The notes: generated by a model from the sequence alone, not told the origin. 64,000 nt of DNA from an uncultured virus (IMG/VR IMGVR_UViG_3300025803_002109) (IMGVR_UViG_3300025803_002109); one strand, 5' to 3'. Shown: positions 18,199-61,529, counted from the first letter of the stretch. A program made the numbers and translations.

Positions 18199-18375
18199 AT
18201 GAATGCTTTGGAATTTGAAACAACTTGTTCGAGACTCTCGGATAATGTTGCGGAGGGCGTATTGCTTACTGATTCCTTGAAAGCCGCTACTTCTGCACAG
18301 CATAACTGTCTAACTCGTATTCACGCCGTATTGATGAAGTGGGGGTCGTCAAACGATGTCCAACCGAAAGAGTAG
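18199..18375 (+). CDS. 58-aa hypothetical protein (not in ORF track)
   Basis: AGGTGA Shine-Dalgarno; MNALEFETTCSRLSDNVAEG...QPKE. Confidence 0.55.
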   Translation: MNALEFETTCSRLSDNVAEGVLLTDSLKAATSAQHNCLTRIHAVLMKWGSSNDVQPKE

Positions 18376-18691
18376 GACTTCTGACGATGATGTTGCACAA
18401 GAGTTCGTGCAAGATCTTTTAGAATTAGTTACCCAGTCGATCGTGGCTAATGAACATACCAATGCCGCCATTATTCGTTTACAAGAACAACAAAAAGTTA
18501 CTGCAGACGATCTCAAACAATTATTAACTTTAGTTCGAGATGGCAATGGTCGCCCACCTTTAATTTCTCGTTTAGAAGCATTAGAGCGAACTGAACAAGA
18601 TATTCAAAAGAAAAACGCTATGTCTTGGGAAATCCTTTTGGTTGCTTTACCAGGGATCCTAGCATTTTTATCTACTATGGGTGCTATGTAG
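18356..18691 (+). CDS. Coiled-coil protein with C-terminal TM (tail-anchored)
   Basis: GNGRPPLISRLEALER then WEILLVALPGILAFLSTMGAM-stop. Confidence 0.75.
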   Translation: MSNRKSRTSDDDVAQEFVQDLLELVTQSIVANEHTNAAIIRLQEQQKVTADDLKQLLTLVRDGNGRPPLISRLEALERTEQDIQKKNAMSWEILLVALPGILAFLSTMGAM

Positions 18692-23682: not shown

Positions 23683-24189
23683 TTGGCAGTTCGCAGACAA
23701 GTTTATGAATGGTTAGTTCAAGATTTAGGTCAATTACCACCTAAACGATTAGATCAATTAACTAGACCGCAATCTATCTTTTACTCTCAAATAGGCAATG
23801 CTACTCTTAAAAATCGTCAACGAACCTCAGACGATGAATTTATTGTTATTCAGTATTTCGGATCTACTCCTGGAATTTGGCCGCAAGGGGCTACCGGATT
23901 ATATGCTACTGGAAATAATTGGGTTCCGGGAGGATACGTTAATTTTATTATCGATACCACTACTTATTTTCAAAATCCAGATGATCTTCCTGGTGTAGGA
24001 CTTTCTGGAACGGCACAACCATTTCCAATATCTACTAACTATTCTCCTGCATTTGTAGGATCCTGGGATTTAGAAATTCCTCCTGATACTAATTGGGATA
24101 TAACTTATTTCGTTTCCAATGGTTTTGTAGATCCAGTAGAGGATTTTCCTTTGACCCCCGTTAGGTCATGGGTTACCAGAATAGTTTGA
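23683..24189 (+). CDS. Beta-rich hypothetical protein (possibly structural)
   Basis: GGTGA Shine-Dalgarno before TTG; aromatic/Pro/Gly-rich. Confidence 0.75.
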   Translation: MAVRRQVYEWLVQDLGQLPPKRLDQLTRPQSIFYSQIGNATLKNRQRTSDDEFIVIQYFGSTPGIWPQGATGLYATGNNWVPGGYVNFIIDTTTYFQNPDDLPGVGLSGTAQPFPISTNYSPAFVGSWDLEIPPDTNWDITYFVSNGFVDPVEDFPLTPVRSWVTRIV

Positions 24190-24206
24190 ATGGAGGTCTT
24201 GAATAC

Positions 24207-27107
24207 ATGGGTTTAGCGTTTCGTTTGAATACCAGCAACTATCCTTGGTTTCAAAATTTAGAAAATTGGTTAGATGCTTCCGGAGTTGCCGCCGGAACAT
24301 TAACTGATGTTAATGCTAATGGAACTCGTTTGAAAGGTTATGGATATGTAGGAGCCCCCGTAAATACTGGACCGACAGTAGATCAAGGAATTTGTATCGC
24401 TCCCACAGGAGAATATATTATAAGAGATGGAATTTATATTAATGGAGTTTGGATAGTAGTAGGTTCTTATCGTTGTTATGTTTCTTCGAACGGAGCCGGA
24501 GTATTACCTACTCGAGATGGATATGCTTGGGATGGATTTATTTTATTACATCGTGGCTACTCTAATATTAATAGACCCGTAGGAGAAATAACTACTGCTG
24601 ATTTACCAGACCCTTCTATGTATTCTTTTATTCCTATGAGGATGCCCTTAGATACTTTATCAGATCCCGCTACTCAATGGGATGATCCCGATGTAGGATT
24701 ATATTCTATTGATTTCATTAGATATAATGGAGAGGCTAACGAAGTATTAGCCACACAAGATGGATTAGCGTTTTGGGTAACCGGCCATAGTAACATTGAC
24801 CCTACTCTATATCCCGCTTATGGATTAGTGCAGCCTCCAACTTCATTAGATACTTGTGCCCATATATCTTCTTGGTATTTTGATCCAGATAATTTATCGG
24901 GTCGAACTAATAGAGAAACTCCACTCACTTACACTTTATCTCAACAAGATTCCGGAGTATTTTCATTATATGCGGATTACTTTACTCCTCAAGATCCGAC
25001 ACTATCACAATATTTCTCTCGACCTTATGGAATTGAAAAATATGTTGCCGTTACTACCGATGCCATAAATGGTGTCGCTCCTCCAGATTATTCTTTTATT
25101 AATTTTAATAATGGTATGTTGCCCGATGGAACTGGTGGTGGAGCCCCTGGTCCAGATAGAAATGCAGTCAATCGTGGTTATTGGCCTATGAAAGCCTTTG
25201 GAGTAAATGCTTTAGGTAGTGACAATCCAGCCATTCTAAATCAAGGTATGGCATACGTTTCAGGAACTGTGGGGTTGCTGAATGCGGCGGGCACAGAAAT
25301 TGAAAACACTTGTCCGATGATAATATCTAGCATTATTACTGGTAATCTTCCTACTGCAGATCCTGCAGCATATTACTTTAATATGAGTCCGGCTCATGCC
25401 TGTCCTTTTCAAGCCTATACGGATCCTTTCCGAAAAATTTGGTTTAATGAAATTACTAGAGGGTCACCACCGGCAACACCCCCTTACTATAATTTATTAG
25501 GTGCGAACGCTATTTTTACTAATCCTCCCGCTGAAAATATAGATCCACAATTTGCCGCCGTTCAAATAACACCAATAATTATTGGAGTAAATAATATAGA
25601 TGTGGCCGGAGTTATTTGTGCGGGCACTTATACTTATTATTCGGTTACTGGTTCGGGAGACATTCCAGTAGCCTTCGTTTGGCAAGTTCGTAGTGGTGGT
25701 TGGGAAACTGATACTGGAATACTTTGTCCTACTGATTGGGAAACTATCGGCCGACAATATTCTACTTTTACTATTGCCGAAGAAGATATTGCTTACAATA
25801 CTACTGGAACAACTTTATGGGATATCGATCATCAAGAAACTGTAGGATATGCGGGCAATTGGCAACGTCTGCCTCCCAACGCTAACAATTCCGGAACGCC
25901 TTCTCGATTAGGATTTGGAATTTTTGGTGGCTATTCTGGAGTTACTGGAACTGGAGCCGCTGCGTGGGTTTATGATAGCACCGCTACTTCAGGTGCCGCC
26001 ACCGCTACTGGATTCGATTGTGAAAGTATTTTGAATAATATTGGATCCGATATTGAAGCCGGAGTTATTGGAGGTGTGGCCGCCGACTTTAATTTAATTT
26101 CCTGCCAATGGGACAATGACCGAGATCAATGGCTAATGTTAGGAAGTGATACTACTAACGGAGTTAAAATCATTTCTTCGGATTCTATCTTTTCAACTTT
26201 CTTAGATCAGACTGCAAATTTCCAAGGATTCCCGGCTACTTCTACTTCTGCGAATTATACTCCTATTTCTATGAGTAATTCTTTAGACGGTTTCGTATCT
26301 TTTGGTCGCACTTCTACGAGTGTGATCGGTTCTCGAAATGGAACTTTAACTACTGCTCCTACTGGAACAGCCAATAGAAACTTAACTAATACTTTGGGAA
26401 ATTTTATTTATGATCAATCTTTAGGAACTACTCTTCCCGTAGTTAGAATAGATGGAAGCACCGGCAGAAATGCTCAAGTGTGGGTAGATTATATTTTGTT
26501 TGATGGAAATGATTCTTTGATTGCTTCAACTTTGAAATCTTGGGGAATTAAAGTTACGGTAGAAAATGTAGAATGGTTCAAGGCTCGTTTGTTAGTCGGA
26601 GGAGACATCAAGGCTACTGCCGAAGAAATTGAAAATTGGGTAGAGGCTCAAGGAGCAGAATATCGAGAAATGCTAAAATATAAAGAGCGTCAAGGTAGAC
26701 TCCGCCGCCGCCGAAAACAAGTTTCTGGATACATGAGAGAAATCGAAGATAAACTTGGACCTATGACTATTGATACTGAACAATTAGCCGATTGGGTTCC
26801 TAGAGGAAGTTCCGCTTCACTTCGCAAACGTGAATCTGGTGGAGCATTAATTACACCCCCACCAACTTCCGTTGAGGCTATGGTAGAACGTGATACTAGA
26901 GTAGGTGGCACTCCTTCTGGAAATCAATTGCCAGGAGATATTCCGGCTGAAGAACCCGGAACTCCGGCTGGTTCAGATCTACAAACTATCGCTAGCCCAA
27001 CGGGTTCTAAGAAAGAGCCTGGAGAGTCTCGAGATCCAGACGAATCATTGGACGAATCCTATGCTGCCGAATCAGAAAAATCTAAATCTGAATCCGACCG
27101 GTCTTGA
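24207..27107 (+). CDS. Large beta-rich protein with basic helical and acidic C-terminal regions (possibly structural)
   Basis: ORF open from 24168, but GGAGG Shine-Dalgarno favours ATG 24207; T/G/N/P-rich body; RLRRRRK patch. Confidence 0.8.
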   Translation: MGLAFRLNTSNYPWFQNLENWLDASGVAAGTLTDVNANGTRLKGYGYVGAPVNTGPTVDQGICIAPTGEYIIRDGIYINGVWIVVGSYRCYVSSNGAGVLPTRDGYAWDGFILLHRGYSNINRPVGEITTADLPDPSMYSFIPMRMPLDTLSDPATQWDDPDVGLYSIDFIRYNGEANEVLATQDGLAFWVTGHSNIDPTLYPAYGLVQPPTSLDTCAHISSWYFDPDNLSGRTNRETPLTYTLSQQDSGVFSLYADYFTPQDPTLSQYFSRPYGIEKYVAVTTDAINGVAPPDYSFINFNNGMLPDGTGGGAPGPDRNAVNRGYWPMKAFGVNALGSDNPAILNQGMAYVSGTVGLLNAAGTEIENTCPMIISSIITGNLPTADPAAYYFNMSPAHACPFQAYTDPFRKIWFNEITRGSPPATPPYYNLLGANAIFTNPPAENIDPQFAAVQITPIIIGVNNIDVAGVICAGTYTYYSVTGSGDIPVAFVWQVRSGGWETDTGILCPTDWETIGRQYSTFTIAEEDIAYNTTGTTLWDIDHQETVGYAGNWQRLPPNANNSGTPSRLGFGIFGGYSGVTGTGAAAWVYDSTATSGAATATGFDCESILNNIGSDIEAGVIGGVAADFNLISCQWDNDRDQWLMLGSDTTNGVKIISSDSIFSTFLDQTANFQGFPATSTSANYTPISMSNSLDGFVSFGRTSTSVIGSRNGTLTTAPTGTANRNLTNTLGNFIYDQSLGTTLPVVRIDGSTGRNAQVWVDYILFDGNDSLIASTLKSWGIKVTVENVEWFKARLLVGGDIKATAEEIENWVEAQGAEYREMLKYKERQGRLRRRRKQVSGYMREIEDKLGPMTIDTEQLADWVPRGSSASLRKRESGGALITPPPTSVEAMVERDTRVGGTPSGNQLPGDIPAEEPGTPAGSDLQTIASPTGSKKEPGESRDPDESLDESYAAESEKSKSESDRS

Positions 27108-27164
27108 AGACAGAATACTTTAAGTAGTTGTAAATTCAAATAACTAATCCAAGGAGGTATCCTT

Positions 27165-27611
27165 GTGCCGACATATGAGGAATTTAGACAAATAATTACT
27201 TTGCCTTATTCACCCGTTATTTCTACCTATCAGACTGCTACTATACCTTCTGGAATCGAATTACAAGAATTAATGATTTCTCCTGGATCCGATGCCATTA
27301 CAGATACCTTTTTAACTATTTTAATAGACAATGAAGTCTTATTTTCAGGTAAAATACCTACCTCTGGATTCAAAATAGACATTTTAGATAGCCATAGTTC
27401 TGATAAATCACTGCCTTTACCCCGTAGAATGACTGTTTTTTCTTCTCCAGAATCAGAATTAGATAATATTTTAGATAAAGGGCAATCATTTCGTCAAATT
27501 GGTGACGCTACCGGTGAAATTATATTAAATTTCATCGGAATGTGGAGACATCCCGTCATTCATACCCATTATTCTGAGTATGATCAGAGATTTGGAATAG
27601 AATATGCGTAA
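27165..27611 (+). CDS. Hypothetical beta-rich protein
   Basis: AGGAGGT Shine-Dalgarno before GTG. Confidence 0.75.
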   Translation: MPTYEEFRQIITLPYSPVISTYQTATIPSGIELQELMISPGSDAITDTFLTILIDNEVLFSGKIPTSGFKIDILDSHSSDKSLPLPRRMTVFSSPESELDNILDKGQSFRQIGDATGEIILNFIGMWRHPVIHTHYSEYDQRFGIEYA

Positions 27612-27847: not shown

Positions 27848-29092
27848 TTGACTATTACTATGGCCTCACTAATTTTATTTACTGGAAAAGGAGGAGTGGG
27901 TAAAACCACCGTATCTTCTGCTACTGCCTTACACTATGCTAGTCTTGGAAAGAAAACAATTTTAATTTCTACCGATCCTGCTCATAGCACAGACGATACA
28001 TTAGGAGTTACATTAGGTTCGGATAAAATTGTGCCCGTTGCCCCCAATTTTTGGGCTAAAAATATTAATTCCGAAGCCGCCGCATCTAGATTTGCCGAAA
28101 CTCTGAAACAAGGTATGGAAAAACTTTTTGGAAATTCTATTCCTGGCTTTGATCCTGAAATCTTTTCTGACATGGCTACCTTTCCAGGAATGGATGAATA
28201 TTTTGCCTTAGATGAAATTCTAAAGTTAGTGCAATCCACTGATTATGATATCGTAGTTTTCGATACGGCTCCTACTGGACACACTTTGAAAGCCTTGAAT
28301 GCTCCCGCTGCAATTAGAACATTTATTTTGCGTATTCTTCGAATGCGAGCCAAGATTGAATCTATCAAAGGAATTTTTAAGGCTCGAGATAATACCGTTC
28401 CAGAACTAATAAATAATTTGGAACAAATTTGTGAAAAGGTAGAGAGATTAACTTATATTTTAAGAAATCCCGAGTTTGTATCCGTAAACTTAGTTAGCAT
28501 ACCTACGGAATCCGGATATCAAGAGTGTGCCCGAACTATAAACTTTTTAGAAAGAATGAATATTCCCATAAATAATATAGTAGTCAACAATGTCATGCCT
28601 AACTTTGGAAAATCAGAATGGGAAGCCGCTAACGAACACCCTAGTATTCAATTAGTTAAAAGACATTATGATTCTCAACAACCTCACTTATCCAACTTCA
28701 AAAAGTTGTGCCAAGAACATCAATTAAAATTAGTAGGAATGAGTTTGTTACCTTTCGAACCACGAGCGGAAAAATTAAAAGATTATGCAGACATACTTTT
28801 TAGATCACCATCTAACGGAGGCTTCGACTGGAATCCGAAGCCTATTTTTGATGGCGATAGTTCGGAAGATCTAGTTCGCATGAATTTACCCTACATCGGA
28901 AAACTCGAAAAATCAGATTGGAAAAATTTAGGTTCTGATGGAACTAGTCCTGGATATTCATTTGGTAGTTTTCAATTCGGAAACACTTGGGACGGTATCT
29001 ATCGAATAGATGAAAGTATTTTGGATCCAAATGCTACGTATATTAAAAGAAAAACTGGAGAACACACAGTTACCTTTAGTAAAGTAAATTAA
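27848..29092 (+). CDS. ArsA/Get3 (TRC40)-family ATPase, single domain, with probable C-terminal alpha-crystallin-like domain
   Basis: GKGGVGKTT, STDPAHS, PGMDE, FDTAPTGHT, VVNN; helical insert after DTAPTGH; C-terminal extension of about 85 aa; start probably ATG 27860. Confidence 0.9.
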   Translation: MTITMASLILFTGKGGVGKTTVSSATALHYASLGKKTILISTDPAHSTDDTLGVTLGSDKIVPVAPNFWAKNINSEAAASRFAETLKQGMEKLFGNSIPGFDPEIFSDMATFPGMDEYFALDEILKLVQSTDYDIVVFDTAPTGHTLKALNAPAAIRTFILRILRMRAKIESIKGIFKARDNTVPELINNLEQICEKVERLTYILRNPEFVSVNLVSIPTESGYQECARTINFLERMNIPINNIVVNNVMPNFGKSEWEAANEHPSIQLVKRHYDSQQPHLSNFKKLCQEHQLKLVGMSLLPFEPRAEKLKDYADILFRSPSNGGFDWNPKPIFDGDSSEDLVRMNLPYIGKLEKSDWKNLGSDGTSPGYSFGSFQFGNTWDGIYRIDESILDPNATYIKRKTGEHTVTFSKVN

Positions 29093-29303
29093 ATTATATT
29101 AAATTGGAAAATAAATTTAATTAGTTCAGATACTGATGACGATGATGCCGATGATGCTGATGATGCCGATGGATTAATTCTCCATAATACTTATATAGGT
29201 AATCCCAGTCTACTAGAATCAGTGAAAGTGGTGCACTCACGAACTTCCCCATCCCGCACCAATTAAATTAAATTAAACCCAATTCTACGCCCTCATTATA
29301 ACT

Positions 29304-29320
29304 GAGGAAGTAAGGAGGGT
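29304..29320 (+). repeat. 17-bp element GAGGAAGTAAGGAGGGT, copy 2 of 4
   Basis: Exact match; intergenic. Confidence 0.9.
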
Positions 29321-29338
29321 CTTTGAGCCTACGGAGAT

Positions 29339-29512
29339 ATGATTATGGAAACTGATACTCTATTATTAATTGTGGCTGCACTGGGAACTATTCAAGCAAT
29401 TCATGGATTGGGGTTTCTATATGTTTTACGTTGGATGCTCTGGAGAAATCAACAGTTGACATTATTATTGACAGAATATTATAGTAAAATAAAACCTGAA
29501 AAGGAAGACTAA
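29339..29512 (+). CDS. 57-aa membrane protein (not in ORF track)
   Basis: MIMETDTLLLIVAALGTIQAIHGLGFLYVLRW...; GGAG upstream. Confidence 0.55.
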   Translation: MIMETDTLLLIVAALGTIQAIHGLGFLYVLRWMLWRNQQLTLLLTEYYSKIKPEKED

Positions 29513-29543
29513 TATTATATAGTCGTGATATTTAATAATAAAT

Positions 29544-30110
29544 ATGACTTTCGGACATGATGTTTTTCAGAGAGGATTTGCTGCGGAAGTTTTGTTTCGT
29601 GCATCAGACGATCACGCAGAAATATCTTATCGATCACACAGTAAAAATACAATTGGAGGTAAAGTAGTTTGTAAAGAACTTACTAGTCCTTATAATGTAA
29701 CCTATTCTTCTGGAGGTTCAAAGTCTGGAATGAAGGCACAAAATTACAGAACATTAGAGGATGCAAAGACTGCTGCCGAGAAATATGACTTAACAGGAAA
29801 ATGGGTCTATCTAGGTGATTTATCTCCATCTTTGGATGACTGTAGTAATGATGTCGAAAAAACATGCCCAGAGGGACAAGTTCGTAAATTTAATACTGCG
29901 ACTGATACCTGGGAATGTGCTCCCGTAGAAAATGGTGATGATGTTATGGGATGCATGGATTCTGATGCAAATAACTACGACTCAAAAGCGACTGTAGATG
30001 ACGGCTCTTGTAAGTATGATGAAACTGGTGGAGATGATGAAGAAGGCAGTAATCTAAATACTATATTCTTAGTGGCTGCTGTAGCCGTAATAGGCTCTAT
30101 GTTTATCTAA
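29544..30110 (+). CDS. Tail-anchored protein with GCMD...NY...DDGSC module
   Basis: TTATATAG at 29515; GCMDSDANNYDSKATVDDGSCKY; C-terminal IFLVAAVAVIGSMFI. Confidence 0.8.
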   Translation: MTFGHDVFQRGFAAEVLFRASDDHAEISYRSHSKNTIGGKVVCKELTSPYNVTYSSGGSKSGMKAQNYRTLEDAKTAAEKYDLTGKWVYLGDLSPSLDDCSNDVEKTCPEGQVRKFNTATDTWECAPVENGDDVMGCMDSDANNYDSKATVDDGSCKYDETGGDDEEGSNLNTIFLVAAVAVIGSMFI

Positions 30111-30145
30111 GTATTTTACAAAATAATAAATAGTAGTTCAATAAA

Positions 30146-30580
30146 GTGATTAATATGTTCGGACACAGTGCTTGGGATACTACAGTTAAATATTCCGAGG
30201 GGAGATCTTCAAAAATAATTTCCAAAGGCTATAAAGCAGAAGGAGATGATATAATTGGAGGTTCTCCAGATAAGTCTTTAGAACGCCGACCAAAAGCCGG
30301 TTCCATTACTGACTGTCAAGTTAGTGAGTGGAGTGACTGGGAAGTTTCTAATGATGGTTGTATAGAGATTCGCACTCGTAAGGTTGTTAGAGAACCTACT
30401 TGTGGTGGAAAAGAATGTCCTATATTAGTAGAAGAAAGACCAGTTGGTGCAACTGACTCTGTTTGGGGTTGGAGTGAATGGACAGCAGATCCAAACGATC
30501 CTTGTTTCGAAATCCGAAAAAGAATTATGAGATCTCCTGCTACTTGTGGAGGAAATCCAAACGATCCTTTACTAAGTTGA
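30146..30580 (+). CDS. Protein with two thrombospondin type-1-like repeats (start probably 30155)
   Basis: CQVSEWSDW...C.EIRTR.V...P.CGGK.CP.L.EER; second copy WSEW...CFEIRKR...P.TCGG. Confidence 0.75.
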   Translation: MINMFGHSAWDTTVKYSEGRSSKIISKGYKAEGDDIIGGSPDKSLERRPKAGSITDCQVSEWSDWEVSNDGCIEIRTRKVVREPTCGGKECPILVEERPVGATDSVWGWSEWTADPNDPCFEIRKRIMRSPATCGGNPNDPLLS

Positions 30581-30589
30581 GGGAAAATT

Positions 30590-30748
30590 ATGGATTTTTA
30601 TGCAGAAGTTGATGAATCAATCCAACGCCGACCTTCTGGAGTTTGTGAAGACACGTCTGAATCTACTTTAGATATTTCTACTATTCTAAAAAGTCCTGTT
30701 ACTATTGTAGTCGGTCTAGGATTAGTAGGGTTCTTATTATTAGGTTGA
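30590..30748 (+). CDS. 52-aa tail-anchored protein (not in ORF track)
   Basis: MDFYAEVDESIQRRPSGVCED...PVTIVVGLGLVGFLLLG; same frame as both neighbours. Confidence 0.65.
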   Translation: MDFYAEVDESIQRRPSGVCEDTSESTLDISTILKSPVTIVVGLGLVGFLLLG

Positions 30749-30760
30749 GGATAGATTAAT

Positions 30761-31018
30761 ATGGAGAAGTGTATTAATTGGAGCGATTGGAAAGAAGATC
30801 CAAGAAATAATTGTTTTGAAACTAGATCTTGTTTAGAATTTGAGAAAGTAGAGGAAGATGATTCACTTTTAAGGAAATTGTTTTTTGCAGAATCGGATCC
30901 GAATTCTTCTAAAGATACTATAAAGAAAGTAACCTTTTCTACCGGAGCAATACCATTTGTATTGACAACAACCGCCTTGATCGGTGTATCCGCTTTATTA
31001 ATCGGTAAAATAAAGTAA
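30761..31018 (+). CDS. Tail-anchored protein with partial TSP1-like motif
   Basis: CINWSDWKEDP..NCFETRSC; C-terminal TM. Confidence 0.75.
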   Translation: MEKCINWSDWKEDPRNNCFETRSCLEFEKVEEDDSLLRKLFFAESDPNSSKDTIKKVTFSTGAIPFVLTTTALIGVSALLIGKIK

Positions 31019-31658: not shown

Positions 31659-32081
31659 ATGAACCAAGAAGAAACACGATATTGGCCAAGAGTCGGACTA
31701 TACGTAACTCGGAAGACTGCTAATGAATTTATTTCTCGTATGGGAAATACTGGAAATGTTTTAGATGATGACCTCGAGGAGTTTGTGCAAAATACTACTC
31801 CAGACCCTCTGTATTTAACTGCGGAGGTTGAAGAATTATTTAATTCTGAATATGAGTCTCAAGATATCACTCCGGACAATAAAGCCATACTAGAATTGAT
31901 GCAATTCGAGTCGAAGAAAAAGGAATTTATTTTACAACACAAAGGAGATGGTATGACTTTACAAGAAGCCAAAGATGCTTACAAAGTGGAATTGGATAAA
32001 AAGGTTTTCAATGCATTGCCAGAATCATCTCAAAAAAGAGTTTTAGAACTAAAAGAAAAGAATGAAGCAGAAGAAGAATAA
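31659..32081 (+). CDS. Hypothetical helical protein
   Basis: TTAAATAC at 31630, 29 nt before ATG. Confidence 0.75.
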   Translation: MNQEETRYWPRVGLYVTRKTANEFISRMGNTGNVLDDDLEEFVQNTTPDPLYLTAEVEELFNSEYESQDITPDNKAILELMQFESKKKEFILQHKGDGMTLQEAKDAYKVELDKKVFNALPESSQKRVLELKEKNEAEEE

Positions 32082-32096
32082 TTTGGGGTTGATTAA

Positions 32097-32525
32097 TTGA
32101 GCGACTTCGACAAGAGACAACGGCCACTACCTTTAACAGAAACTTTAGTTTTTGATATCGTAGATTATTTATTGAAGCATGAAGGTTATGGATATTCTAC
32201 GCAGATCTCATCTTTTATGGTATCTCATAAACCCAGAAGATATACTTCTAGAGAAGTTGTAGGGATATTAAGAAATAGACCTATGTTTCGTCATGCACAA
32301 TCCAAAGATAGAAAAGGCGGTATTCGTTGGAGATTAGATTTACTACAATTAGAAAGATACTTAGCCCAAAAAGGATTCCAAGAAAGAGCCAATGAATTAG
32401 GTTTGTATGATAAGATGAGAGAATTAAAATTATCTCAGATCACTAATACTGTAATGGTATTAGAAGAAATGGATACTATGAATATTAATGAAGTTTACGA
32501 AAAAATTGCTACTTTGTGGAGTTAA
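32097..32525 (+). CDS. Winged-helix DNA-binding protein
   Basis: IVDYLL...YSTQI...YTSREVVGILR..PMF...IRWRL. Confidence 0.65.
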   Translation: MSDFDKRQRPLPLTETLVFDIVDYLLKHEGYGYSTQISSFMVSHKPRRYTSREVVGILRNRPMFRHAQSKDRKGGIRWRLDLLQLERYLAQKGFQERANELGLYDKMRELKLSQITNTVMVLEEMDTMNINEVYEKIATLWS

Positions 32526-32542
32526 GGTATGGTGGGATTTAC

Positions 32543-32665
32543 TTGGATATTGAAGAGTGGCATAAACAACATAGAGAAGTATCAGCACTTATTAGAACCG
32601 TAACTACTTTACTCAATGTGATTATTTCTGCGGCGGTCGCTGTGAAAGTATTTGATTTAATCTAA
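32543..32665 (+). CDS. 40-aa hydrophobic-tailed peptide (not in ORF track)
   Basis: TTG start after GGTGGGA; MDIEEWHKQHREVSALIRTVTTLLNVIISAAVAVKVFDLI. Confidence 0.45.
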   Translation: MDIEEWHKQHREVSALIRTVTTLLNVIISAAVAVKVFDLI

Positions 32666-39097: not shown

Positions 39098-42000
39098 ATG
39101 ATGGAAATGAGTGATGAAGAAATTATTGAAACCCCTATTATTGATGAGCCTACTCTAGAAGATGAACTTATTCCTACCGAATCCATGATGAATTCTATGA
39201 TAGAAGACTCTATTGCCGATATGGTAGATGAAGATGAAGATGAGTCTCCTGGAACTATGAGTTCTGCTGTCAAAGATTCAGTGTCTTTGGAAACCAGCAT
39301 AAATAATATTCTAAAAACTTATTTGGGTGATCAACTGTCAGAAACTCTTCTAGAATATGCTGACATAGTTAATCCTGAAGAAATAGACTCTGCCGACAAC
39401 GTATTAATATTTGGAGGACGCACTCGAAATGAAATTAAATTTGCTCAACTCCGCCAAGGTTCAAGTCCTGCAGGTGGAGTCGAAATACTTTCTGGTATTG
39501 AAGTCGGTTCTCTTTCTCCCAGCAATGCATTCTCCGATGAAAGAATTAGAAAAACTTTAGAAAATAAAGTTCTTCGTTTAAACGCTGGACCTAAGAGTGA
39601 GGATAAGAGGGCTGAACAAGCCCAACGGCTATCCAATATCCGCCGTTCAATTAATTCCCTTACTTCCGTCTTTGGGTTTGATGACCCTAGACAAGCGGAA
39701 GCATTTATCGCCGCTTGGTTAATGAAAGATTCCACTTGCCGATTATCTGGAATTCCAGGAACTGGTAAAACTACTGTAGTCGAGTCGGCTGCATTACTTA
39801 TGGCTAACTCCTATGGATTCGATGATCAAATAAGATTTTATCCTAAAGATGCTTCTGATCCAGAATCAGAATTCCTTATCTTTGAAAACGGTCAACAATA
39901 TGAAGCCTACCTAAATCAGAATAAGGATGGTATTCGAGATCTCTGGAATAACTGGAGATTTACTGAATGGTATTCTATGAATCCAGAACAACCCACTGAA
40001 AAAATTGCTAATTTAGGCTCCTCTGGTTCTTATCTATATGATTTTGGTTTCTTGGCTAAAAAGTATTCCGTGATGGAGGGACAAGTTGCTACTTATCGCC
40101 CAAAACTTGGAAGTATCTCTCCGGATCTCTATCGTAAAGCCCTCTTAAATTGTTGGCTATATAAAGAGAAGGGGATTAATCCATTAGATGGTTCCGAATA
40201 TAACATTTACAAAATCATGCCGATCAACCTAGGTCTTGAAGCCTTTGGTCCTGGTAGGGATGGAAAAATTACGGCGGGAGAATCACACCCTAATGATCCT
40301 AATTATAAGGCTCAATTCACAGTAGATTATGCAAAACTTTTGACTCCCGGTTTAAAAGAAAAATTAACTGGTAACATGACAATGGCTGATTTATTACAGT
40401 CTTTAGACTTTAGAACGGACGCTGGCCGTAATGAAGGATTTGCCCTTCGTGAGTGGTTAATGTCTCATTACTATGATGAGAGAAGAGATAGAGGAGATGC
40501 AGGTCGAAGTTCCATAAAGGGAGAAATGCTAAGAGAGATTGGTATTGCTAAAATCGATTATGATAAGCGAGCCGATGAAGTCCTCTATGGTATGGATATT
40601 AGACAAGTTTCTAGAAAAGATCCAAATGATCCTGGAAAAACAATTTCCGCTTATGATTTCGAACCAATACCAAGACCAGTTGTTACGCAACCTATCAAGT
40701 TCTTTAACGAAGCAAACCGTTCTCAATCTGGAGTAGAAGATGCAATTCTAGGATTGATTGCTGAAAAGACTGTAGAATATCGTGGACGTTCATTCCGTTC
40801 TCCTTCTTTCGTGGCTTGGATGGATACTAACCCTCACCAAAAAGGAAACGATTTGGCTTTCGTAGATCGAATTGATATGGAACTTTTATTCAGCACACTG
40901 ACTCTAGGAGATAGATATATGCAGTTGAAGTCTCAATATAAAGATAGAACTGTCAATCAAGATACAGATGCTCTCAGCCAACCTCAAGATTTAGTTATTT
41001 TTGATTCCGAAATTGGTATGGCTTCTGATTCACCTAACCGTGCCCGTTCTATGCGAATTACAGATTTGATGAAACTCTGGAAATATATCGATGGAATACC
41101 TTTCACTAATGGTGGTCGTTCAATGATGGGCTATGATGGATTAAGAGACATTTCTTTGATATCAGTTATGTTTACTCAAAGATACATGACACGCCCTACC
41201 GAAACTACAATGGGATCTGATCAAAGTAGAACGGCTCAGTTACCCGATTCACAAAACATTCACAGCAGTCCTTTAATAGATATTTCAAAGACTACTAATC
41301 AAGATCTTTTAGAAGGAAACTCTCCGACTACTATGTTCGAAACAGATAACGCTTCGTCTTTTGGATCTATCGGAACTGATGGTTCTCTACAAGCACCCGC
41401 TTTATTCAAGAGAGTTTTAGGATTCAGGTTTACTAAATCTTTAGTAAAACTTTCTCGAACATTAGCCTTCTTAAGAGGAAAAGATTTCGTTACTAGAACT
41501 GAAATTTTAGATGCCCTTCCATATGTTATCGGACATCGTATGGGTCCTGCCCGTGCCGGTAATGACCCTAAAGGTAGAGATCTCGGAACTGTAACTGGTG
41601 GATTAGGTGTGCTACCTTCTGAACAAGAATTAATTAGAGAACTTTTAGTTTCTGGATATGTAAAGCCAGTTTCTGGAGAGAGTTCAGATGATGGTTCCTT
41701 GAAGTTCGAACCGCTATATGAAGCACAAGCGAATCCAAACACAAATTCTCGAAAAAATACATTACTTGATGTTTGGGATACCGTTTATCAAAGATGTATG
41801 GCTACTTTGGCCTCCTGTGATAACTTTGCTCAATATGAAGCCAAGATCCTTCGTCCATTAAAACAAATGTTAAATGGAGAAGATGCAGATAATGCAGAAA
41901 ATACTACTCCTATTCATTGGCATATTGCTACTATGGTAGTAGAGCAAGAAAGAAAAGAAAAAGAACTTTCTCGATGTCTTCGAACTGATGATGGCCTAAC

Positions 42001-43312
42001 TTATCGCCAAAGATATAACAAATACTTCCGAGCCATCAATATTCCAACCGATGTTAATGAATCATTAGATATGCAAGCCCCTAGCACTGCTGAAGGTATT
42101 CAAATTGATTACAGTTTATTAGATTATTATATTTTGAGATCTAAAATTGCCTCCGATCCACTGCTCTTTACTGATGATAGAACTTATTTACTTGACTTAG
42201 TAGAAGCACGTATCTCTACGTTTGCTGGACCGGCTTTCAATGTGGCCGCTGAGGATGCTATACAAGTTCCAATTGGATACTCTACTTACTATTTGTGGAA
42301 TGATTCCAGTCCACTAATTCAAGATTACATAGTTCATCCAAATCCTGGAACTTACAATATTTCCACATATAATGATGCTTTGGGTGCTTACGGCCAACTA
42401 ATGCAAAACAGTAAGAAAATTGATGTCGCTGCCATAATCGGAGAAATCAGTTCCGAGGACGATGCGATATTTAATTTAACTAATGATGCTACTGTAGGGC
42501 TTTCTTATGAAATGTCCAACCAAAAGATGCAAATTTCGGGATCCTATCTTCATCGTAAAGAAAGTGATGGATCTTACTTGGAAATAGATAGAACTACGGC
42601 TCGATCTCCTGGAACGTATTTGGCTAGTATGGATGCCATTACTGATAATTTCCGTGCTTGGTGCGATTCTGGAGTAATAATGTCTAGCAATGGCAGTATT
42701 ATAAGTTCTAATGCAGATTTCGAATTGACTATGGAAGATTGGGAACTCGCAGTAGAAGCCGTCTTAGCCAACCCTAATCAAGATATTGCTCAAACTTTAT
42801 CAGATGCGGGCATAGATCCTACTTGGGAATTTGCTTTTGATGATTCTGGTTTATTCTTTTGCTTCGATCTAGCACACCATAGTTCTTCTCGTAAAGCAAA
42901 CACTTTACTAGTTATGATGAAAGAACAAGGATTGATTGATGAAGATGCTACTGATATTCCAAACGATAAATTAAAACTATGGGTTTGGATCGCCGCTAAA
43001 AAATATATAGATGACGATGCTGCCACAGCAACTTGGAGATATATTACTACTTATGGAATTACTAGTGGTTTCTTAGCCGATACAAAAATAATTAGAAAAG
43101 GAACCGGTCAATATGAAATGACAGTTCCCGGAACATTTGTAGCCATTGATAGTCAAGCATTTTATGACGCTTGTGGAAAGGCTAGCAATTGGTCCCCGGC
43201 AGGAGATGATACAGTTCCATTTATGGATGCAGGAAATTTGACCGAGGCTGATGCGGGAGCATACCACCAACTATTTTTAGGTGCTTTATTCCGTGCCAAC
43301 CAGGGGTCTTGA
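39098..43312 (+). CDS. Very large MoxR-type AAA+ ATPase
   Basis: Walker A GIPGTGKT; DEVLYG; Walker B-like KFFNEANR; AILGLIAEKTV; sensor DTNP; AFVDRID Arg finger; ALPYVIGHR. Confidence 0.85.
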   Translation: MMEMSDEEIIETPIIDEPTLEDELIPTESMMNSMIEDSIADMVDEDEDESPGTMSSAVKDSVSLETSINNILKTYLGDQLSETLLEYADIVNPEEIDSADNVLIFGGRTRNEIKFAQLRQGSSPAGGVEILSGIEVGSLSPSNAFSDERIRKTLENKVLRLNAGPKSEDKRAEQAQRLSNIRRSINSLTSVFGFDDPRQAEAFIAAWLMKDSTCRLSGIPGTGKTTVVESAALLMANSYGFDDQIRFYPKDASDPESEFLIFENGQQYEAYLNQNKDGIRDLWNNWRFTEWYSMNPEQPTEKIANLGSSGSYLYDFGFLAKKYSVMEGQVATYRPKLGSISPDLYRKALLNCWLYKEKGINPLDGSEYNIYKIMPINLGLEAFGPGRDGKITAGESHPNDPNYKAQFTVDYAKLLTPGLKEKLTGNMTMADLLQSLDFRTDAGRNEGFALREWLMSHYYDERRDRGDAGRSSIKGEMLREIGIAKIDYDKRADEVLYGMDIRQVSRKDPNDPGKTISAYDFEPIPRPVVTQPIKFFNEANRSQSGVEDAILGLIAEKTVEYRGRSFRSPSFVAWMDTNPHQKGNDLAFVDRIDMELLFSTLTLGDRYMQLKSQYKDRTVNQDTDALSQPQDLVIFDSEIGMASDSPNRARSMRITDLMKLWKYIDGIPFTNGGRSMMGYDGLRDISLISVMFTQRYMTRPTETTMGSDQSRTAQLPDSQNIHSSPLIDISKTTNQDLLEGNSPTTMFETDNASSFGSIGTDGSLQAPALFKRVLGFRFTKSLVKLSRTLAFLRGKDFVTRTEILDALPYVIGHRMGPARAGNDPKGRDLGTVTGGLGVLPSEQELIRELLVSGYVKPVSGESSDDGSLKFEPLYEAQANPNTNSRKNTLLDVWDTVYQRCMATLASCDNFAQYEAKILRPLKQMLNGEDADNAENTTPIHWHIATMVVEQERKEKELSRCLRTDDGLTYRQRYNKYFRAINIPTDVNESLDMQAPSTAEGIQIDYSLLDYYILRSKIASDPLLFTDDRTYLLDLVEARISTFAGPAFNVAAEDAIQVPIGYSTYYLWNDSSPLIQDYIVHPNPGTYNISTYNDALGAYGQLMQNSKKIDVAAIIGEISSEDDAIFNLTNDATVGLSYEMSNQKMQISGSYLHRKESDGSYLEIDRTTARSPGTYLASMDAITDNFRAWCDSGVIMSSNGSIISSNADFELTMEDWELAVEAVLANPNQDIAQTLSDAGIDPTWEFAFDDSGLFFCFDLAHHSSSRKANTLLVMMKEQGLIDEDATDIPNDKLKLWVWIAAKKYIDDDAATATWRYITTYGITSGFLADTKIIRKGTGQYEMTVPGTFVAIDSQAFYDACGKASNWSPAGDDTVPFMDAGNLTEADAGAYHQLFLGALFRANQGS

Positions 43313-43316
43313 ATAC

Positions 43317-48389: not shown

Positions 48390-49646
48390 ATGTCTGACAT
48401 TACTCTGGGCGACCACATTAAATTTCCGGCTTACGGAGAAAAATCTGTATCTTCGCAAGTTGTTTTCGTTACTGGTAAGAGAGGTTCCGGAAAATCTTAT
48501 ACCGCTGGTGTGATGATGGAAGAATTTGATAAGGCTCAGTTACAATTCGTTTGTTTCGATGTTTTGTCTGCCCATGCCGGTATGGATGCATTACCTAATG
48601 TAGAATCTATCCGTCCTCGAGAAGATGAAACTATTGATATGAATTTATTAGTCTCTAAGATCGCTACCGGAAATAAATCTTTAATTATAGATATTGGAGG
48701 ATGCACATTACCTAAGCAACAACTTTTAATTGCTGATTATTGTGAGGCTCTAATTGATGCCAAAATTGGCCATAACCATAATAAAACTTTAATGACTATT
48801 ATTGAAGAATGTCAGGATTTCGTGCCCCAACAAGGACGGCCAGTTTCATTTTCACCAATTGTTAGACTTTGTAAGTTAGGTCGTGGATTAGGTTATGGTT
48901 GCACTTTGATTACTCAGCGACCTGCAGCCTGTAACAAAGAAGCCTTATCACAAGCGGCAGTATATCTAACGCATAATGTGATAAATAGCCGTGATCTCAA
49001 GGCTTTGGAAGAACAGTTGTCATTTGGAACTGATCGAGAAAGAGTAAAAAGAATTCTACAAGGTGTCAATGCGGCTCAAAAAGGAGAAGTCGTAGCCTAT
49101 GCTCCCGAATATTTCCGAGAAACAGGATACATTCGTATTGGTAAAATCCGTGGCGACCGCCGAGTTAAACATACTGGTGGTAACATTTCCGCTTCGCCAT
49201 TAACCAGTAATAATTCTGAATCTTTTGCTGGAACTAGTTCTCCTTCTGGAGAAATGATTGGAGACTATAGTAATTCATCCAATAATATTTCTTTTGCCGA
49301 AACTAGTTCTCCTACAGGTCTAGTTACTTTAGAACCTATTAGCAGTTTAGGAGGGGCTGGTGCAGCCTCCTCTTTGTTAACTAGTAATATGGGATTCAAA
49401 CCTTTAGATCCCTATGCGGCCTCTGAAATGGGTGGCGATAGATATCTTACCGACATGGATTTAGATTCTTCTCGAGAAGAAATTTTGACTTGGGATCCTC
49501 CAGTAACCTATGAGGGTCTTGAAGACATGAACTCTGATACATTTCTATCAGAGGAAACCAAAACATCTTTTATTAAAGGTCCTATTTGGGGCTTTGGTGT
49601 CGCAGTAATGATTGCTTCGGGTGCATATTTCGTAGTAAAGAAATGA
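48390..49646 (+). CDS. HerA/FtsK-superfamily ATPase (DUF87-like) with C-terminal TM anchor
   Basis: VTGKRGSGKSY, CFD, IIEECQDFVP, GRGLG...ITQRPA; Ser-rich linker; IWGFGVAVMIASGAYFVVKK-stop. Confidence 0.85.
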   Translation: MSDITLGDHIKFPAYGEKSVSSQVVFVTGKRGSGKSYTAGVMMEEFDKAQLQFVCFDVLSAHAGMDALPNVESIRPREDETIDMNLLVSKIATGNKSLIIDIGGCTLPKQQLLIADYCEALIDAKIGHNHNKTLMTIIEECQDFVPQQGRPVSFSPIVRLCKLGRGLGYGCTLITQRPAACNKEALSQAAVYLTHNVINSRDLKALEEQLSFGTDRERVKRILQGVNAAQKGEVVAYAPEYFRETGYIRIGKIRGDRRVKHTGGNISASPLTSNNSESFAGTSSPSGEMIGDYSNSSNNISFAETSSPTGLVTLEPISSLGGAGAASSLLTSNMGFKPLDPYAASEMGGDRYLTDMDLDSSREEILTWDPPVTYEGLEDMNSDTFLSEETKTSFIKGPIWGFGVAVMIASGAYFVVKK

Positions 49647-52055: not shown

Positions 52056-52856
52056 ATGGAACATAAAAAGAATTGTGGATGTGGAAAAGATCCGTGTATT
52101 ACCTATGGTGCAGAATCCAATAGTGCAAACGATGATATTTCACTTATGATGGGTATTATAGATGAGATAGAAGCCAATGATATTTGGAATGAAACTATTA
52201 ATGAAATGATCCGCCGAGGAAAAGCAGTTCGTAGACCAGATGGAAAAGTTATTTTTTCTGACAGAGTTCCTCAATTCGATATCATAGAAGATATTGCTCA
52301 ATATACAACCTCCGAGATTAAGTCGGCTGAAAATTCAGACTATTGGATGACTTTTGGAAGAGTAGATTATAATTGGGTTACGGATCCAGAAGATATGGAA
52401 TTAACCGATGAAAACTTTTCTATTATTGATGCACACATCCGTGAGCAGGTTCGTTATATAATTGATAATGATAATGATAATTCATCCGGTGAAAGCAATC
52501 TTTCGTCTGGAGATTTAAATCTCACTCAAGAAGATGAAGATGAGTTTACAATTTATTACTACTGGGGAACTCCCTTTACTACTGGAGTAAATTCTGCAGA
52601 AAATATTGAGGGTAAAGACTTAAGCAGTTTTACTTCTAAAGAACTTACAGAAAGTTCTGCGATTCACGGAGACTTTGATCACGCCTCAATTAATTATTCC
52701 GGACACCAGAACTTGGAAGTCCTAGATGCAGAAGAAAATATTGCTATAGCGGATCCCAGTTTTTGGATGAATTATCCGATCACTAGTATGTTGGCTACTG
52801 CAGGAATTTTTGCCATCGGAAAGACGCTATTAAATAGTAGAAAGGGGGACATATAA
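52056..52856 (+). CDS. Acidic modular protein with C-terminal TM
   Basis: CGCGKDPCITYGAE start; KSAE, NSAE, LDAE; hydrophobic C-terminus. Confidence 0.8.
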   Translation: MEHKKNCGCGKDPCITYGAESNSANDDISLMMGIIDEIEANDIWNETINEMIRRGKAVRRPDGKVIFSDRVPQFDIIEDIAQYTTSEIKSAENSDYWMTFGRVDYNWVTDPEDMELTDENFSIIDAHIREQVRYIIDNDNDNSSGESNLSSGDLNLTQEDEDEFTIYYYWGTPFTTGVNSAENIEGKDLSSFTSKELTESSAIHGDFDHASINYSGHQNLEVLDAEENIAIADPSFWMNYPITSMLATAGIFAIGKTLLNSRKGDI

Positions 52857-53981: not shown

Positions 53982-54476
53982 ATGAGTTTTAATAATTATG
54001 GAAAAATGAAAGATTCCTATGTATTGAAAGATTCTCACAGTAAGGCTAATTATAATATGGGTGATGCTCGTTTTATGGCCGCAGATACGGCTAGCAAACC
54101 TATGTTAGTTGTTGATGGCGGAGTAACTATGGATGCATTAGCATTTCGTAATACTTCACCCGTTACTCACTATACTCCTGAACAATTAGGTATGAGTGTA
54201 AGAGGGACTCCTTTTGAAAATGGAAGTCGAGGGGATACTTCTGAAGGACTAGGATCTCCTGACGAATATGGAAATGAACCACCTAACAATGCATACCCTG
54301 TAACTTATGATAAAGGAACTAGTTCTCCTATGGATCAAGGATTATACTTAGCAGAAGATAATTTAGTAAGTAAATTAAATTCTGGCATAATCGGAATGGT
54401 ATCTAAATATTGGGGAATTGGATTAATAATTGGAGCCATTGGTTATTCTGGATACTATTTAGGAAGCCGCCGGTAA
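53982..54476 (+). CDS. Tail-anchored protein
   Basis: Ends YWGIGLIIGAIGYSGYYLGSRR. Confidence 0.8.
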   Translation: MSFNNYGKMKDSYVLKDSHSKANYNMGDARFMAADTASKPMLVVDGGVTMDALAFRNTSPVTHYTPEQLGMSVRGTPFENGSRGDTSEGLGSPDEYGNEPPNNAYPVTYDKGTSSPMDQGLYLAEDNLVSKLNSGIIGMVSKYWGIGLIIGAIGYSGYYLGSRR

Positions 54477-60785: not shown

Positions 60786-61529
60786 GTGATGTCCGAGAGT
60801 GATCTATCTGCTCAACTGTCTGAATTGGCAGAAGAATTTAATGTTCCTGATGAAGATCCAGAACCTAAACTTGATGCTTCTGCACCTTTAGAAGATGGTC
60901 CGATAACACAAATGCCAGATGAGGCTATGATGGCTGAAGTAGAAATTGCCGGTGAACAAACTTATTTAGAAGAAACTAATCAAGTTCCTCTACAAAATCC
61001 TAATCCCTTACCTCCTCACGAACCAGAAAACTTAGAAGGTCCTGTTTTTGAAAACTATCGAGAGGATCCTGCTGATTATCAATTTCAAGCAGAAATGGAT
61101 TCCGATAAAGTAAGTATTGCATCCATGCCTTTTGCAGATTATATGGAATGGGTATTTCCACCAGAAGGTGAGAAAGGTCACGAGGACGGCCAAGAAACTT
61201 TAGAGATGGTTTGGGGTAATCTCATGGCTGCCGGATATGATGTAGATATCAGAAAAGTAAAAATTGCTGGAGCCCTTTGGAGTCGCCGTCATTATAATGG
61301 TGAAGCCATAAAATCTGCTAGATATATTCTAAAAAGAGTTCCTGCCTCTAAATTAATCGATTTTATTCCACCTTCATTACATCGTAGAGATTGGGAAGAC
61401 TTAGTTCCAGCGGATGTTGCTATGTCGGCTGAAAATAAAACTATGAGTAATTCTCAAAAAGAATTTATGCTAGGAGTTGGAGTAGTATCTGCATTAGTTC
61501 TTCCAATTTTAATGTCAAGGCGAGGTTAA
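60786..61529 (+). CDS. Acidic tail-anchored protein
   Basis: TTAAATAG at 60759; FQAE, MSAE; ends FMLGVGVVSALVLPILMSRRG. Confidence 0.8.
   Translation: MMSESDLSAQLSELAEEFNVPDEDPEPKLDASAPLEDGPITQMPDEAMMAEVEIAGEQTYLEETNQVPLQNPNPLPPHEPENLEGPVFENYREDPADYQFQAEMDSDKVSIASMPFADYMEWVFPPEGEKGHEDGQETLEMVWGNLMAAGYDVDIRKVKIAGALWSRRHYNGEAIKSARYILKRVPASKLIDFIPPSLHRRDWEDLVPADVAMSAENKTMSNSQKEFMLGVGVVSALVLPILMSRRG

Follow-up and report, generated by a model that had tools for sequence, protein, structure and literature searches.

The window analysed here is the whole 64,000-nucleotide stretch of an uncultured virus (IMG/VR record IMGVR_UViG_3300025803_002109), which is AT-rich (GC 0.34-0.43) and carries nearly all of its long open reading frames (ORFs) on the + strand. 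Near its middle lies a gene for a Get3-like ATPase, followed by a membrane microprotein and by three genes whose products end in a single hydrophobic segment (Table 1). The start codon of the ATPase gene is probably the ATG rather than the upstream TTG, because residue 5 (MASLILF) is the first residue in all relatives and in the ESM Atlas copy of the protein.

Profile searches and a clade alignment bear out the initial annotation, made from the sequence by itself, that this is a single-domain ATPase of the ArsA family which lacks the CxxC zinc hinge of Get3. The ORF matches Pfam ArsA_ATPase (E 1.6e-61) and scores 205 bits against NCBIfam TIGR00345 GET3_arsA_TRC40, above the cut-off of 135. On the other hand, it falls below the cut-off of the NosAFP (Get3d) equivalog (75 bits versus 325), of which only the first 162 positions are matched. 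In an alignment of 29 sequences of the viral-type clade, the switch I (D43-P-A-H-S) and switch II (D139-T-A-P-T-G-H-T) motifs are invariant in all 29 members, and the deviant Walker A P-loop (GKGGVGKT) is kept in at least 90% of the rows. The protein has three cysteines and no C..C pair, and no cysteine column is invariant across the clade. Positions L301-P302 and E304-P305 are invariant and R306 nearly so; this LPFEPR region aligns with the VPLL..E..G segment of archaeal Get3, which we take to be the A-loop adenine-contact motif. The A-loop region is thus apparently kept in the viral clade, and it is described as absent from Get3d in parts of a study of that family (PMC10248533).

The predicted structure places the protein closest to archaeal Get3. 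An AlphaFold2 model built on the clade alignment (mean pLDDT 81.4, pTM 0.83) was compared with the PDB by Foldseek, which ranked the Get3 structures of M. jannaschii (3ug6) and M. thermautotrophicus (3zq6) first (E ~1e-23). Using VIA-align, 3zq6 was again the top match (Z 25.9, 281 residues aligned, root-mean-square deviation 3.7), the two archaeal structures lying at Z 24-26. Within the first 20 rows, 15 of the 16 other Get3 entries fall at Z 22-24.5, and the remaining three rows are two ArsA1 structures and one mycobacterial Get3-like protein. Diatom, yeast and human Get3 score Z 21-24.5, bacterial ArsA 19.7-21.5 and NosGet3d 19.3, with all core matches confined to residues 2-323. The viral protein therefore shares with archaeal Get3 the single-domain SIMIBI ATPase, the length of the core and helical subdomain, and the insert, but it is only 28-33% identical, has a Cys-less segment in place of CxxC, bears an extra C-terminal beta-sandwich and resides on a virus-like carrier.

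The helical insert that had been noticed after DTAPTGH is indeed of the archaeal Get3 kind: about 30 aligned residues after DTAPTGHT are common to the viral clade and archaeal Get3 and are gapped in both halves of tandem ArsA. The Cys-less segment that the viral clade has in place of CxxC is about 11 aligned residues longer and contains an invariant Trp. Across the helical subdomain, hydrophobic and polar positions follow those of 24 archaeal Get3 sequences, with r 0.68 (51 columns) and 0.75 (61 columns), values attained by 0 of 2000 shuffles, and the hydrophobic share is 45.6% versus 40.1% in archaeal Get3. This hydropathy pattern suggests that the viral ATPase may form a hydrophobic groove. 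A complex prediction combining two copies of residues 5-322, two ATP, two Mg and the last 42 residues of ORF 30761 was run without controls (score 0.01, mark 0.32) and weighs neither for nor against binding.

The same subdomain bears on whether the gene encodes a ParA/MinD-like ATPase that positions or partitions the linear genome, which we regard as very improbable. ParA-type proteins belong to the same SIMIBI class, and the viral protein does match phrog_164 (2.8e-12) and NCBIfam ParA_partition (1e-7) weakly, although over residues 5-143 and 12-55 only. The best ParA/MinD matches in NCBIfam reach 20-32 bits against cut-offs of 180-508 (residues 5-60), and the PrgP profile reaches 19.7 bits against 400 (residues 9-144). 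Full-length matches are to Get3 alone, and the conserved helical client-binding subdomain is absent from both ParA and MinD.

Relatives of the viral ATPase are numerous in environmental data. Of 8,000 candidates scored in a word-indexed search, 7,974 proved to be relatives. The best 120 of these share 44-98% identity with the viral ATPase and have lengths of about 380-430 amino acids (aa), some lying on contigs of up to 151 kb; the viral-type clade comprises more than 100 protein clusters in metagenomes. Within a library of 1.84 billion representatives, the clade is reduced to a handful of clusters, and the next matches are tandem proteins of about 650 aa (31-39% identity). Scans of genomes and viral contigs found nothing with single-protein queries and succeeded with alignment-based ones. 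In this way, 590 of 603 candidate stretches from prokaryotes (one genome per species, 185,579 genomes) were found to encode relatives, the best of them, from Poseidoniales and other archaea, only 39% identical. Similarly, relatives with 48-58% identity are encoded by five of 43 candidate stretches from IMG/VR, where the contigs measure 84-166 kb. Full-length family members occur exactly once in each of two Poseidoniaceae genomes, as the CxxC-less type, and once per viral record.

Phylogenetic analysis was performed with a quick IQ-TREE build (LG+C20+F+G4 by posterior mean site frequency) on 108 rows and 307 columns, comprising 15 viral sequences, 80 named cellular homologues and 13 tandem ArsA proteins split into halves. 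The viral clade is monophyletic (Shimodaira-Hasegawa-like approximate likelihood ratio test (SH-aLRT) 100) on a long stem of 1.28. It joins ten CxxC-less forms from Thermoplasmatota/Poseidoniales and one deltaproteobacterial sequence (SH-aLRT 88), and the combined group nests within the archaeal Get3 assemblage. The cellular proteins of this Poseidoniales (Marine Group II) type are 30-39% identical to the viral ones and have the same architecture of Get3 core plus C-terminal beta-sandwich, although the cellular tail is recognised by Pfam ArsA_HSP20 and the viral tail is not. Given the weak tree placement, a Poseidoniales-type origin would rest equally on the insert, the loss of CxxC and the C-terminal beta-sandwich, with the CxxC-less Get3 of Poseidoniales as the likely donor lineage. 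As to the separation from ArsA, for which phylogeny had been proposed as a check, the free tree sets the viral clade apart, with tandem ArsA beyond a starred 0.66 branch, but an approximately unbiased (AU) test does not reject a topology holding viral and ArsA sequences together (delta lnL 2.71, p 0.446).

That unrejected position beside ArsA, together with source annotations that label relatives 'arsenite-transporting ATPase', is what could be said for an auxiliary ArsA that powers a host arsenite pump and confers arsenic resistance. ArsA (1f48, 9nbl) shares the superfamily fold and the DTAPTGHT signature with the viral protein. However, ArsA is tandem, carries metalloid-binding cysteines, lacks the insert and lies in ars operons, and in none of these respects does the viral protein or its element agree with it. 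The protein is a single domain rather than an A1-A2 tandem and scores only 114 bits against the ArsA equivalog TIGR04291 (cut-off 650). When aligned with named cellular homologues, the viral clade has non-Cys residues where the ArsA halves have their cysteines. Pfam found no ArsB, Acr3, ArsC, ArsD or ArsR in 53 window ORFs or in the 142 of 223 ORFs scanned in G003, a related 160-kb IMG/VR record, in line with the earlier remark that ars genes are missing nearby. An arsenical role is thus extremely improbable, and fold, insert, cysteines, single-domain organization and gene context support a Get3-type protein rather than an arsenical-pump ArsA.

The ATPase gene belongs to the element itself, as the initial annotation had it. 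Comparison of the window with four IMG/VR relatives examined whole (G001-G004) shows it to be a core gene, present in all five genomes within a conserved block, where it is always preceded by homologues of a 168-aa, an approximately 970-aa and an approximately 148-aa ORF. About 60 kb of the window is colinear with G001-G003. Terminal inverted repeats (ITRs) are present in G002 and G003, both of which are also of the ITR class in IMG/VR; their length varies strongly between the two relatives, from about 3.6 kb in G002 to about 110 bp in G003.

The gene content of G003 indicates the host. This record encodes the large subunit DP2 of DNA polymerase D (PolD) with all three domains (1e-83 to 1e-105), 44-46% identical to DP2 of two Poseidoniaceae genomes, and we know of no other virus with PolD. 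Furthermore, Pfam identified TBP (5e-46), PCNA, PolX, an archaeo-eukaryotic primase, an XPD-like helicase, an Hjc-like resolvase, UvdE, three C5 methyltransferases and a class II ribonucleotide reductase. Because this relative encodes PolD, TBP and PCNA, the host is archaeal, and probably a member of the Poseidoniales. No capsid, envelope or membrane-scaffold protein was found by Pfam and PHROGs in the window or by Pfam in the scanned ORFs of G003. The sole virion-related signal is ORF 48390, an FtsK/HerA-type ATPase matching DUF87 (2.6e-4), phrog_2666 'terminase large subunit' (1.8e-16) and HerA chains in the PDB (~3e-4), and the label 'virus' rests on this packaging-type ATPase and on the IMG/VR classification.

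Proteins with a C-terminal anchor are found throughout the element. Nine ORFs had been named as ending in a single transmembrane segment, and a Kyte-Doolittle (KD) scan with a 19-residue window, in which a maximum of at least 1.7 was called clear, recovers seven of them with maxima of 1.73-2.13: ORFs 18356, 29544, 30590, 30761, 32516 (given earlier as 32543), 48390 and 60786. Of the other two, ORF 53982 is borderline and ORF 52056 weak. Across genomes, tail-anchored ORFs were counted with one gene caller and one criterion throughout (longest non-overlapping ORFs of at least 50 aa, both strands). The 80 cellular loci that served as control have 15 such ORFs among 1099 (1.4%), and the ten Poseidoniales-type loci one among 109 (0.9%). 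By comparison, the proportion is 4/76 (5.3%, Fisher p 0.03 against the cellular loci) in the window, 11/206 (5.3%, p 1e-3) in G001, 12/239 (5.0%, p 1e-3) in G002, 12/213 (5.6%, p 4e-4) in G003 and 17/160 (10.6%, p 3e-8) in G004, an enrichment of 4- to 8-fold. The window count is low because the caller replaces ORFs 30590 and 30761 with a longer antisense ORF and drops 32516. The tails also persist in orthologues despite sequence drift, being kept in the packaging-type ATPase in 5/5 genomes, in the 18356 family in 4/4, in the 60786 family in 3/4 and in the 32516 family in 2/2. Enrichment and conservation agree with the suggestion that the ATPase occurs alongside tail-anchored proteins genome-wide.

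The C-terminal extension of the ATPase (residues ~323-414) is conserved through the whole 29-sequence clade as a domain of its own. Modelled alone on a 28-row alignment (pLDDT 71.8), it forms a seven-strand sandwich. Foldseek gave no PDB match at E<=1e-3, its weak top rows being CS and small-heat-shock domains, so the fold call depends on a wide VIA search of 48,161 representative PDB chains. That search listed the alpha-crystallin domain of AgsA first (Z 6.7), and nearly all of the first 43 rows are small heat-shock protein (sHSP)/alpha-crystallin or CS/p23 domains, including the alpha-crystallin domains of AtGet3d (8elf_B 385-456, Z 5.5) and NosGet3d (3igf 298-369, Z 5.0). All of these values are below the caution line of Z 8, and the assignment therefore leans on the uniformity of the list. 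The likeness to a Get3 alpha-crystallin domain that had been noted earlier thus persists at a modest level, the modelled domain modestly resembling alpha-crystallin/CS domains. At the profile level, neither ArsA_HSP20 nor HSP20 of Pfam is detected in any of five viral proteins at E<=1, and hhalign relates viral and cellular tails with a probability of 9-38% over the first half only. ArsA_HSP20 is recognised in bacterial long forms (1e-16 to 1e-22) and weakly in four of five Poseidoniales-type forms (E 2.8e-5 to 0.12), and an ESM Atlas search with the C-terminal domain gave no usable match.

Get3d of cyanobacteria and chloroplasts (8elf, 8egk/3igf) likewise combines a Get3 core with a C-terminal alpha-crystallin domain and has no CxxC, although its core matches the viral protein less well than that of archaeal Get3 does and its equivalog profile is not reached. 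Parts of the Get3d study state that Get3d binds tail-anchored proteins in vitro and describe the alpha-crystallin domain as a feature of the Get3d clade alone (PMC10248533). CxxC-less cellular Get3 homologues of 387-447 aa with a C-terminal ArsA_HSP20-type domain are also observed in Poseidoniales and allies (loci L004, L008, L010, L011 and L043) and in Acidimicrobiia and Gammaproteobacteria (L012, L030 and L053). The architecture of Get3 plus alpha-crystallin domain hence extends beyond the photosynthetic Get3d clade.

A domain of this kind could also belong to a general ATP-dependent or holdase chaperone that keeps aggregation-prone viral proteins soluble during assembly, in which case the adjacent tail-anchored genes would be incidental. 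The modelled domain looks like sHSP/CS chaperone domains, the nearest cellular forms bear ArsA_HSP20, and the window also encodes MoxR-like AAA and vWA-like proteins and therefore seems to invest in chaperones. Such a role for alpha-crystallin-bearing Get3 is raised in parts of PMC10248533, and chaperonins are described for magroviruses in parts of PMC5434244. We nevertheless consider this explanation unlikely, given the conservation of the helical client-binding subdomain with its amphipathic pattern, the enrichment of tail-anchored ORFs and the persistence of their tails, and a viral C-terminal domain that has diverged past recognition by HSP20 profiles. In addition, the CxxC on which the redox-switched holdase activity of yeast Get3 depends is absent.

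We put at roughly even the chances that the gene encodes a virus-borne targeting factor of the Get3 type for tail-anchored proteins, and its presence beside several such proteins suggests that the element may supply the apparatus with which a membrane is built or remodelled. Of the initial proposal that the element carries a membrane-targeting chaperone of its own to build an envelope or remodel the host membrane, the Get3 type, the location on the element and the enrichment of tail anchors stand, but no capsid or envelope protein was identified in the profile scans. As in cellular Get3, an ATP-bound dimer would close its two helical subdomains into a hydrophobic groove, in which the C-terminal transmembrane helix of a freshly synthesised tail-anchored protein, or perhaps of a very short membrane protein, would be shielded, and would then pass its clients to a membrane. 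Probable clients are the tail-anchored proteins that the element itself encodes, including the products of the three downstream genes and the FtsK/HerA packaging-type ATPase. Insertion might be performed by a host protein of the Oxa1 superfamily (EMC3/DUF106 type) or by a viral receptor, for which a conserved microprotein described below is a candidate. The EMC3/DUF106 family (PF01956) has one gene in each of two Poseidoniaceae genomes and none in three viral records. The C-terminal alpha-crystallin-like domain may stand in for the zinc-CxxC hinge, either by holding the dimer together or as a regulatory contact. Parts of PMC10248533 discuss a similar part in stabilisation or regulation for Get3d and state that some functional Get3 proteins also lack CxxC.

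Several observations weigh against a targeting factor of the Get3 type. The zinc hinge is missing, and methionine makes up 4.7% of the helical subdomain versus 7.6% in archaeal Get3. The placement of the viral clade is insecure because of the AU result and the long branches, the grouping with Poseidoniales-type forms having modest SH-aLRT support, a long stem and a long-branch warning. No Get1-, Get2- or EMC3-like receptor was detected in the element by profile scans of the window ORFs, G003 and the viral records. The hydropathy scan and the gene caller behind the tail-anchor calls are both crude. Furthermore, in G002-G004 the tail-anchored genes beside the ATPase are replaced by N-terminally anchored ORFs. 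Finally, the TSP1-like, Cys-rich heads of the adjacent proteins look extracellular, yet a tail anchor keeps the head in the cytoplasm.

A targeting factor of this type would allow its clients to end in either a virion membrane or the host membrane. The same biochemistry could place the clients in the host cell membrane, where they might, for example, build egress structures, mask receptors or exclude superinfection; the particle itself would then be free of lipid. Archaeal viruses make egress structures out of small membrane proteins, and the scans of the window and G003, which revealed no capsid, envelope or membrane-scaffold protein, are compatible with this destination. We find it quite unlikely all the same, in that the tail anchor kept on the packaging-type ATPase in all five genomes would be easier to understand if packaging took place at a particle-associated membrane.

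In its most extended form, the targeting hypothesis would place the element in a hitherto undescribed lineage of linear archaeal viruses of roughly 95-166 kb with inverted terminal repeats, which probably infect Poseidoniales and possess a minimal GET pathway: a Get3 with an alpha-crystallin-like tail, a conserved docking microprotein of about 50 aa, and a conserved set of tail-anchored structural proteins that include the packaging ATPase and TSP1-like adhesins. The virion membrane would be made in the cytoplasm, with the adhesins reaching the outside of the particle without crossing a membrane. Assembly inside the cytoplasm would follow because tail-anchored heads face the cytoplasm; speculatively, TSP1-like, Cys-rich heads would suit the surface of a particle only when it gains its membrane within the cytoplasm. 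We hold this scheme as tentative and, as a whole, doubtful.

Get3/TRC40 is viewed as a cellular housekeeping factor, and the tail-anchored proteins of eukaryotic viruses use the host TRC40/Get3 route into membranes. Eukaryotic viruses thus borrow the factor from the host, whereas here the element encodes it. The expectation that this would be unusual for a prokaryotic virus fits the searches made. BFVD viral structures contain no Get3-like fold, the best rows being generic P-loop kinases with a query-normalised TM-score of at most 0.32, and six of 50,697 phage records have partial matches, covering at most 50% of the query at no more than 34% identity. Full-text literature searches, at the level of listings and abstracts, yielded no report of a virus-encoded Get3. 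Neither ArsA nor Get3 is mentioned in parts of the papers on magroviruses (PMC5434244) and Poseidoniales viruses (PMC11706807), the supplements of which might list such genes. If the targeting function is true, the element would offer a simple, testable system for the insertion of archaeal tail anchors, for which the receptor is still unknown, and a route by which a prokaryotic virus equips a membrane with proteins from the cytoplasmic side. It would also mark an abundant, undescribed group of large marine archaeal virus-like elements.

Table 1 Features of the window and replication-related loci of relative G003
Feature	Position	Strand	Description
Upstream block of the ATPase module	23683..27611	+	168-aa, 979-aa and 148-aa ORFs; syntenic in relatives
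Get3-like ATPase gene	27848..29092	+	ORF from TTG 27848, 414 aa; probable start ATG 27860, 410 aa
Nucleotide-binding core and helical client-binding subdomain	27860..28813	+	Residues 5-322; invariant DPAHS and DTAPTGHT; P-loop; TRC40-type insert
C-terminal domain of the ATPase	28814..29089	+	Residues 323-414; predicted beta-sandwich, alpha-crystallin/CS-like
57-aa membrane microprotein	29339..29512	+	N-terminal hydrophobic helix, then W..LWRN..LT.LL motif
188-aa tail-anchored ORF	29544..30110	+	Cys-rich motif
144-aa ORF	30146..30580	+	TSP1/spondin-like WSxW domain below Pfam cut-off; no hydrophobic segment
52-aa tail-anchored ORF	30590..30748	+	Own GAGG-type ribosome-binding motif
85-aa tail-anchored ORF	30761..31018	+	WSDW motif; own GAGGA ribosome-binding motif
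111-aa tail-anchored ORF	18356..18691	+	Tail kept in 3/3 orthologues
49-aa tail-anchored ORF	32516..32665	+	Tail kept in G001 orthologue
418-aa FtsK/HerA-type (packaging-type) ATPase	48390..49646	+	Tail anchor, kept in 5/5 genomes
266-aa ORF	52056..52856	+	Weak C-terminal hydrophobic segment, KD 1.36
164-aa ORF	53982..54476	+	Borderline C-terminal segment, KD 1.57, kept in G001
247-aa tail-anchored ORF	60786..61529	+	Tail kept in G001 and G003
G003 DP2	L095:6627-10190	-	All three Pfam domains
Further G003 loci listed with the replication genes	L090:15740-16378; L091:11072-11806		

The microprotein downstream of the ATPase belongs to a family of 48-58 aa that is present in all five genomes, directly follows the ATPase gene in four of them, and has an invariant W..L.RN..LT.L segment. 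Judging from its sequence, it could be a client of the ATPase, because it is probably too short for co-translational targeting, or it is a candidate for a docking site or receptor at the membrane. At a threshold of 1e-4, G001-G003 contain no orthologues of the three tail-anchored genes beside the ATPase, save for a short Cys motif; the G001 lineage does, however, have two other tail-anchored ORFs, of 319 and 198 aa, at distances of one and two genes 3' of the ATPase. Read-through of ORFs 30146, 30590 and 30761, which share a frame, was considered and ruled out, because every one of them starts at an ATG with a GAGG-type motif of its own and because genes here end at all three stop codons. The Cys motif, GCMD..A.NYD..AT.DD.SCKY, is common to the tail-anchored ORF at 29544-30110 and an ORF at 61534-62418 with an N-terminal hydrophobic segment, and this motif is the sole BLAST link to ORFs of G003 and G004.

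Contigs from RNA libraries cover much of this region, with the caution that such a contig is not the same as a transcript and that DNA carry-over is possible. In library X12, contigs at 100% identity span the ATPase gene in four pieces (27858-29208), and one contig of 1,778 nucleotides, also at 100% identity, covers 29238-31015, that is, the microprotein and the three tail-anchored genes. The 5' edge of the latter lies shortly before the microprotein gene and its 3' edge 3 nucleotides short of the end of the stop codon of ORF 30761, which hints that 29238-31015 is one transcription unit apart from the ATPase gene. The gaps of X12, in bins 27000-27166 and 31676-32000, carry no weight. Pieces are also contained in three other RNA libraries (X16, X19 and X20; 5-7 of 30 bins each).

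The 5-kb stretch around the ATPase gene is near-complete (sampled-word share 0.77-1.00) in 15 sequencing runs from estuary, freshwater and sediment, and shares of 0.05-0.19 were obtained in five more runs from freshwater, seawater and marine samples. The runs come from 17 studies in all, and nine of them may represent the source sample.

Other ORFs of the window include three that lie shortly before the packaging-type ATPase gene: one of 1404 aa with a MoxR-type AAA lid (39098-43312), one of 424 aa with the metalloprotease motif HEIGH (43281-44555) and one of 360 aa with a vWA-like DCSGSMS motif (47231-48313). Their products may form a MoxR-vWA chaperone set. Conserved proteins rich in Pro, Gly, Ala and Asn are encoded at 50621-51571, 53271-53966 and 62457-63350, two of them with an (R)(A/G)FGA(D/E) motif, and are possible structural proteins. 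The first of these, ORF 50621 (316 aa, Pro/Gly-rich, beside the packaging-type ATPase), has relatives in this lineage only (56 proteins, no Pfam match) and shows no similarity to its neighbour 49676. An 80-aa ORF at 1256-1498 without a BLAST match in the four relatives encodes two hydrophobic helices; major capsid proteins of spindle-shaped archaeal viruses have this size and this pattern. Upstream of the ATPase, the conserved 979-aa ORF (24168-27107) has a long acidic, Ser-rich tail; ESM Atlas feature matches, all below 0.9 and to be read as leads only, relate it to viral beta-propeller-like and rotavirus VP4-like clusters, and its product may be a receptor-binding protein.

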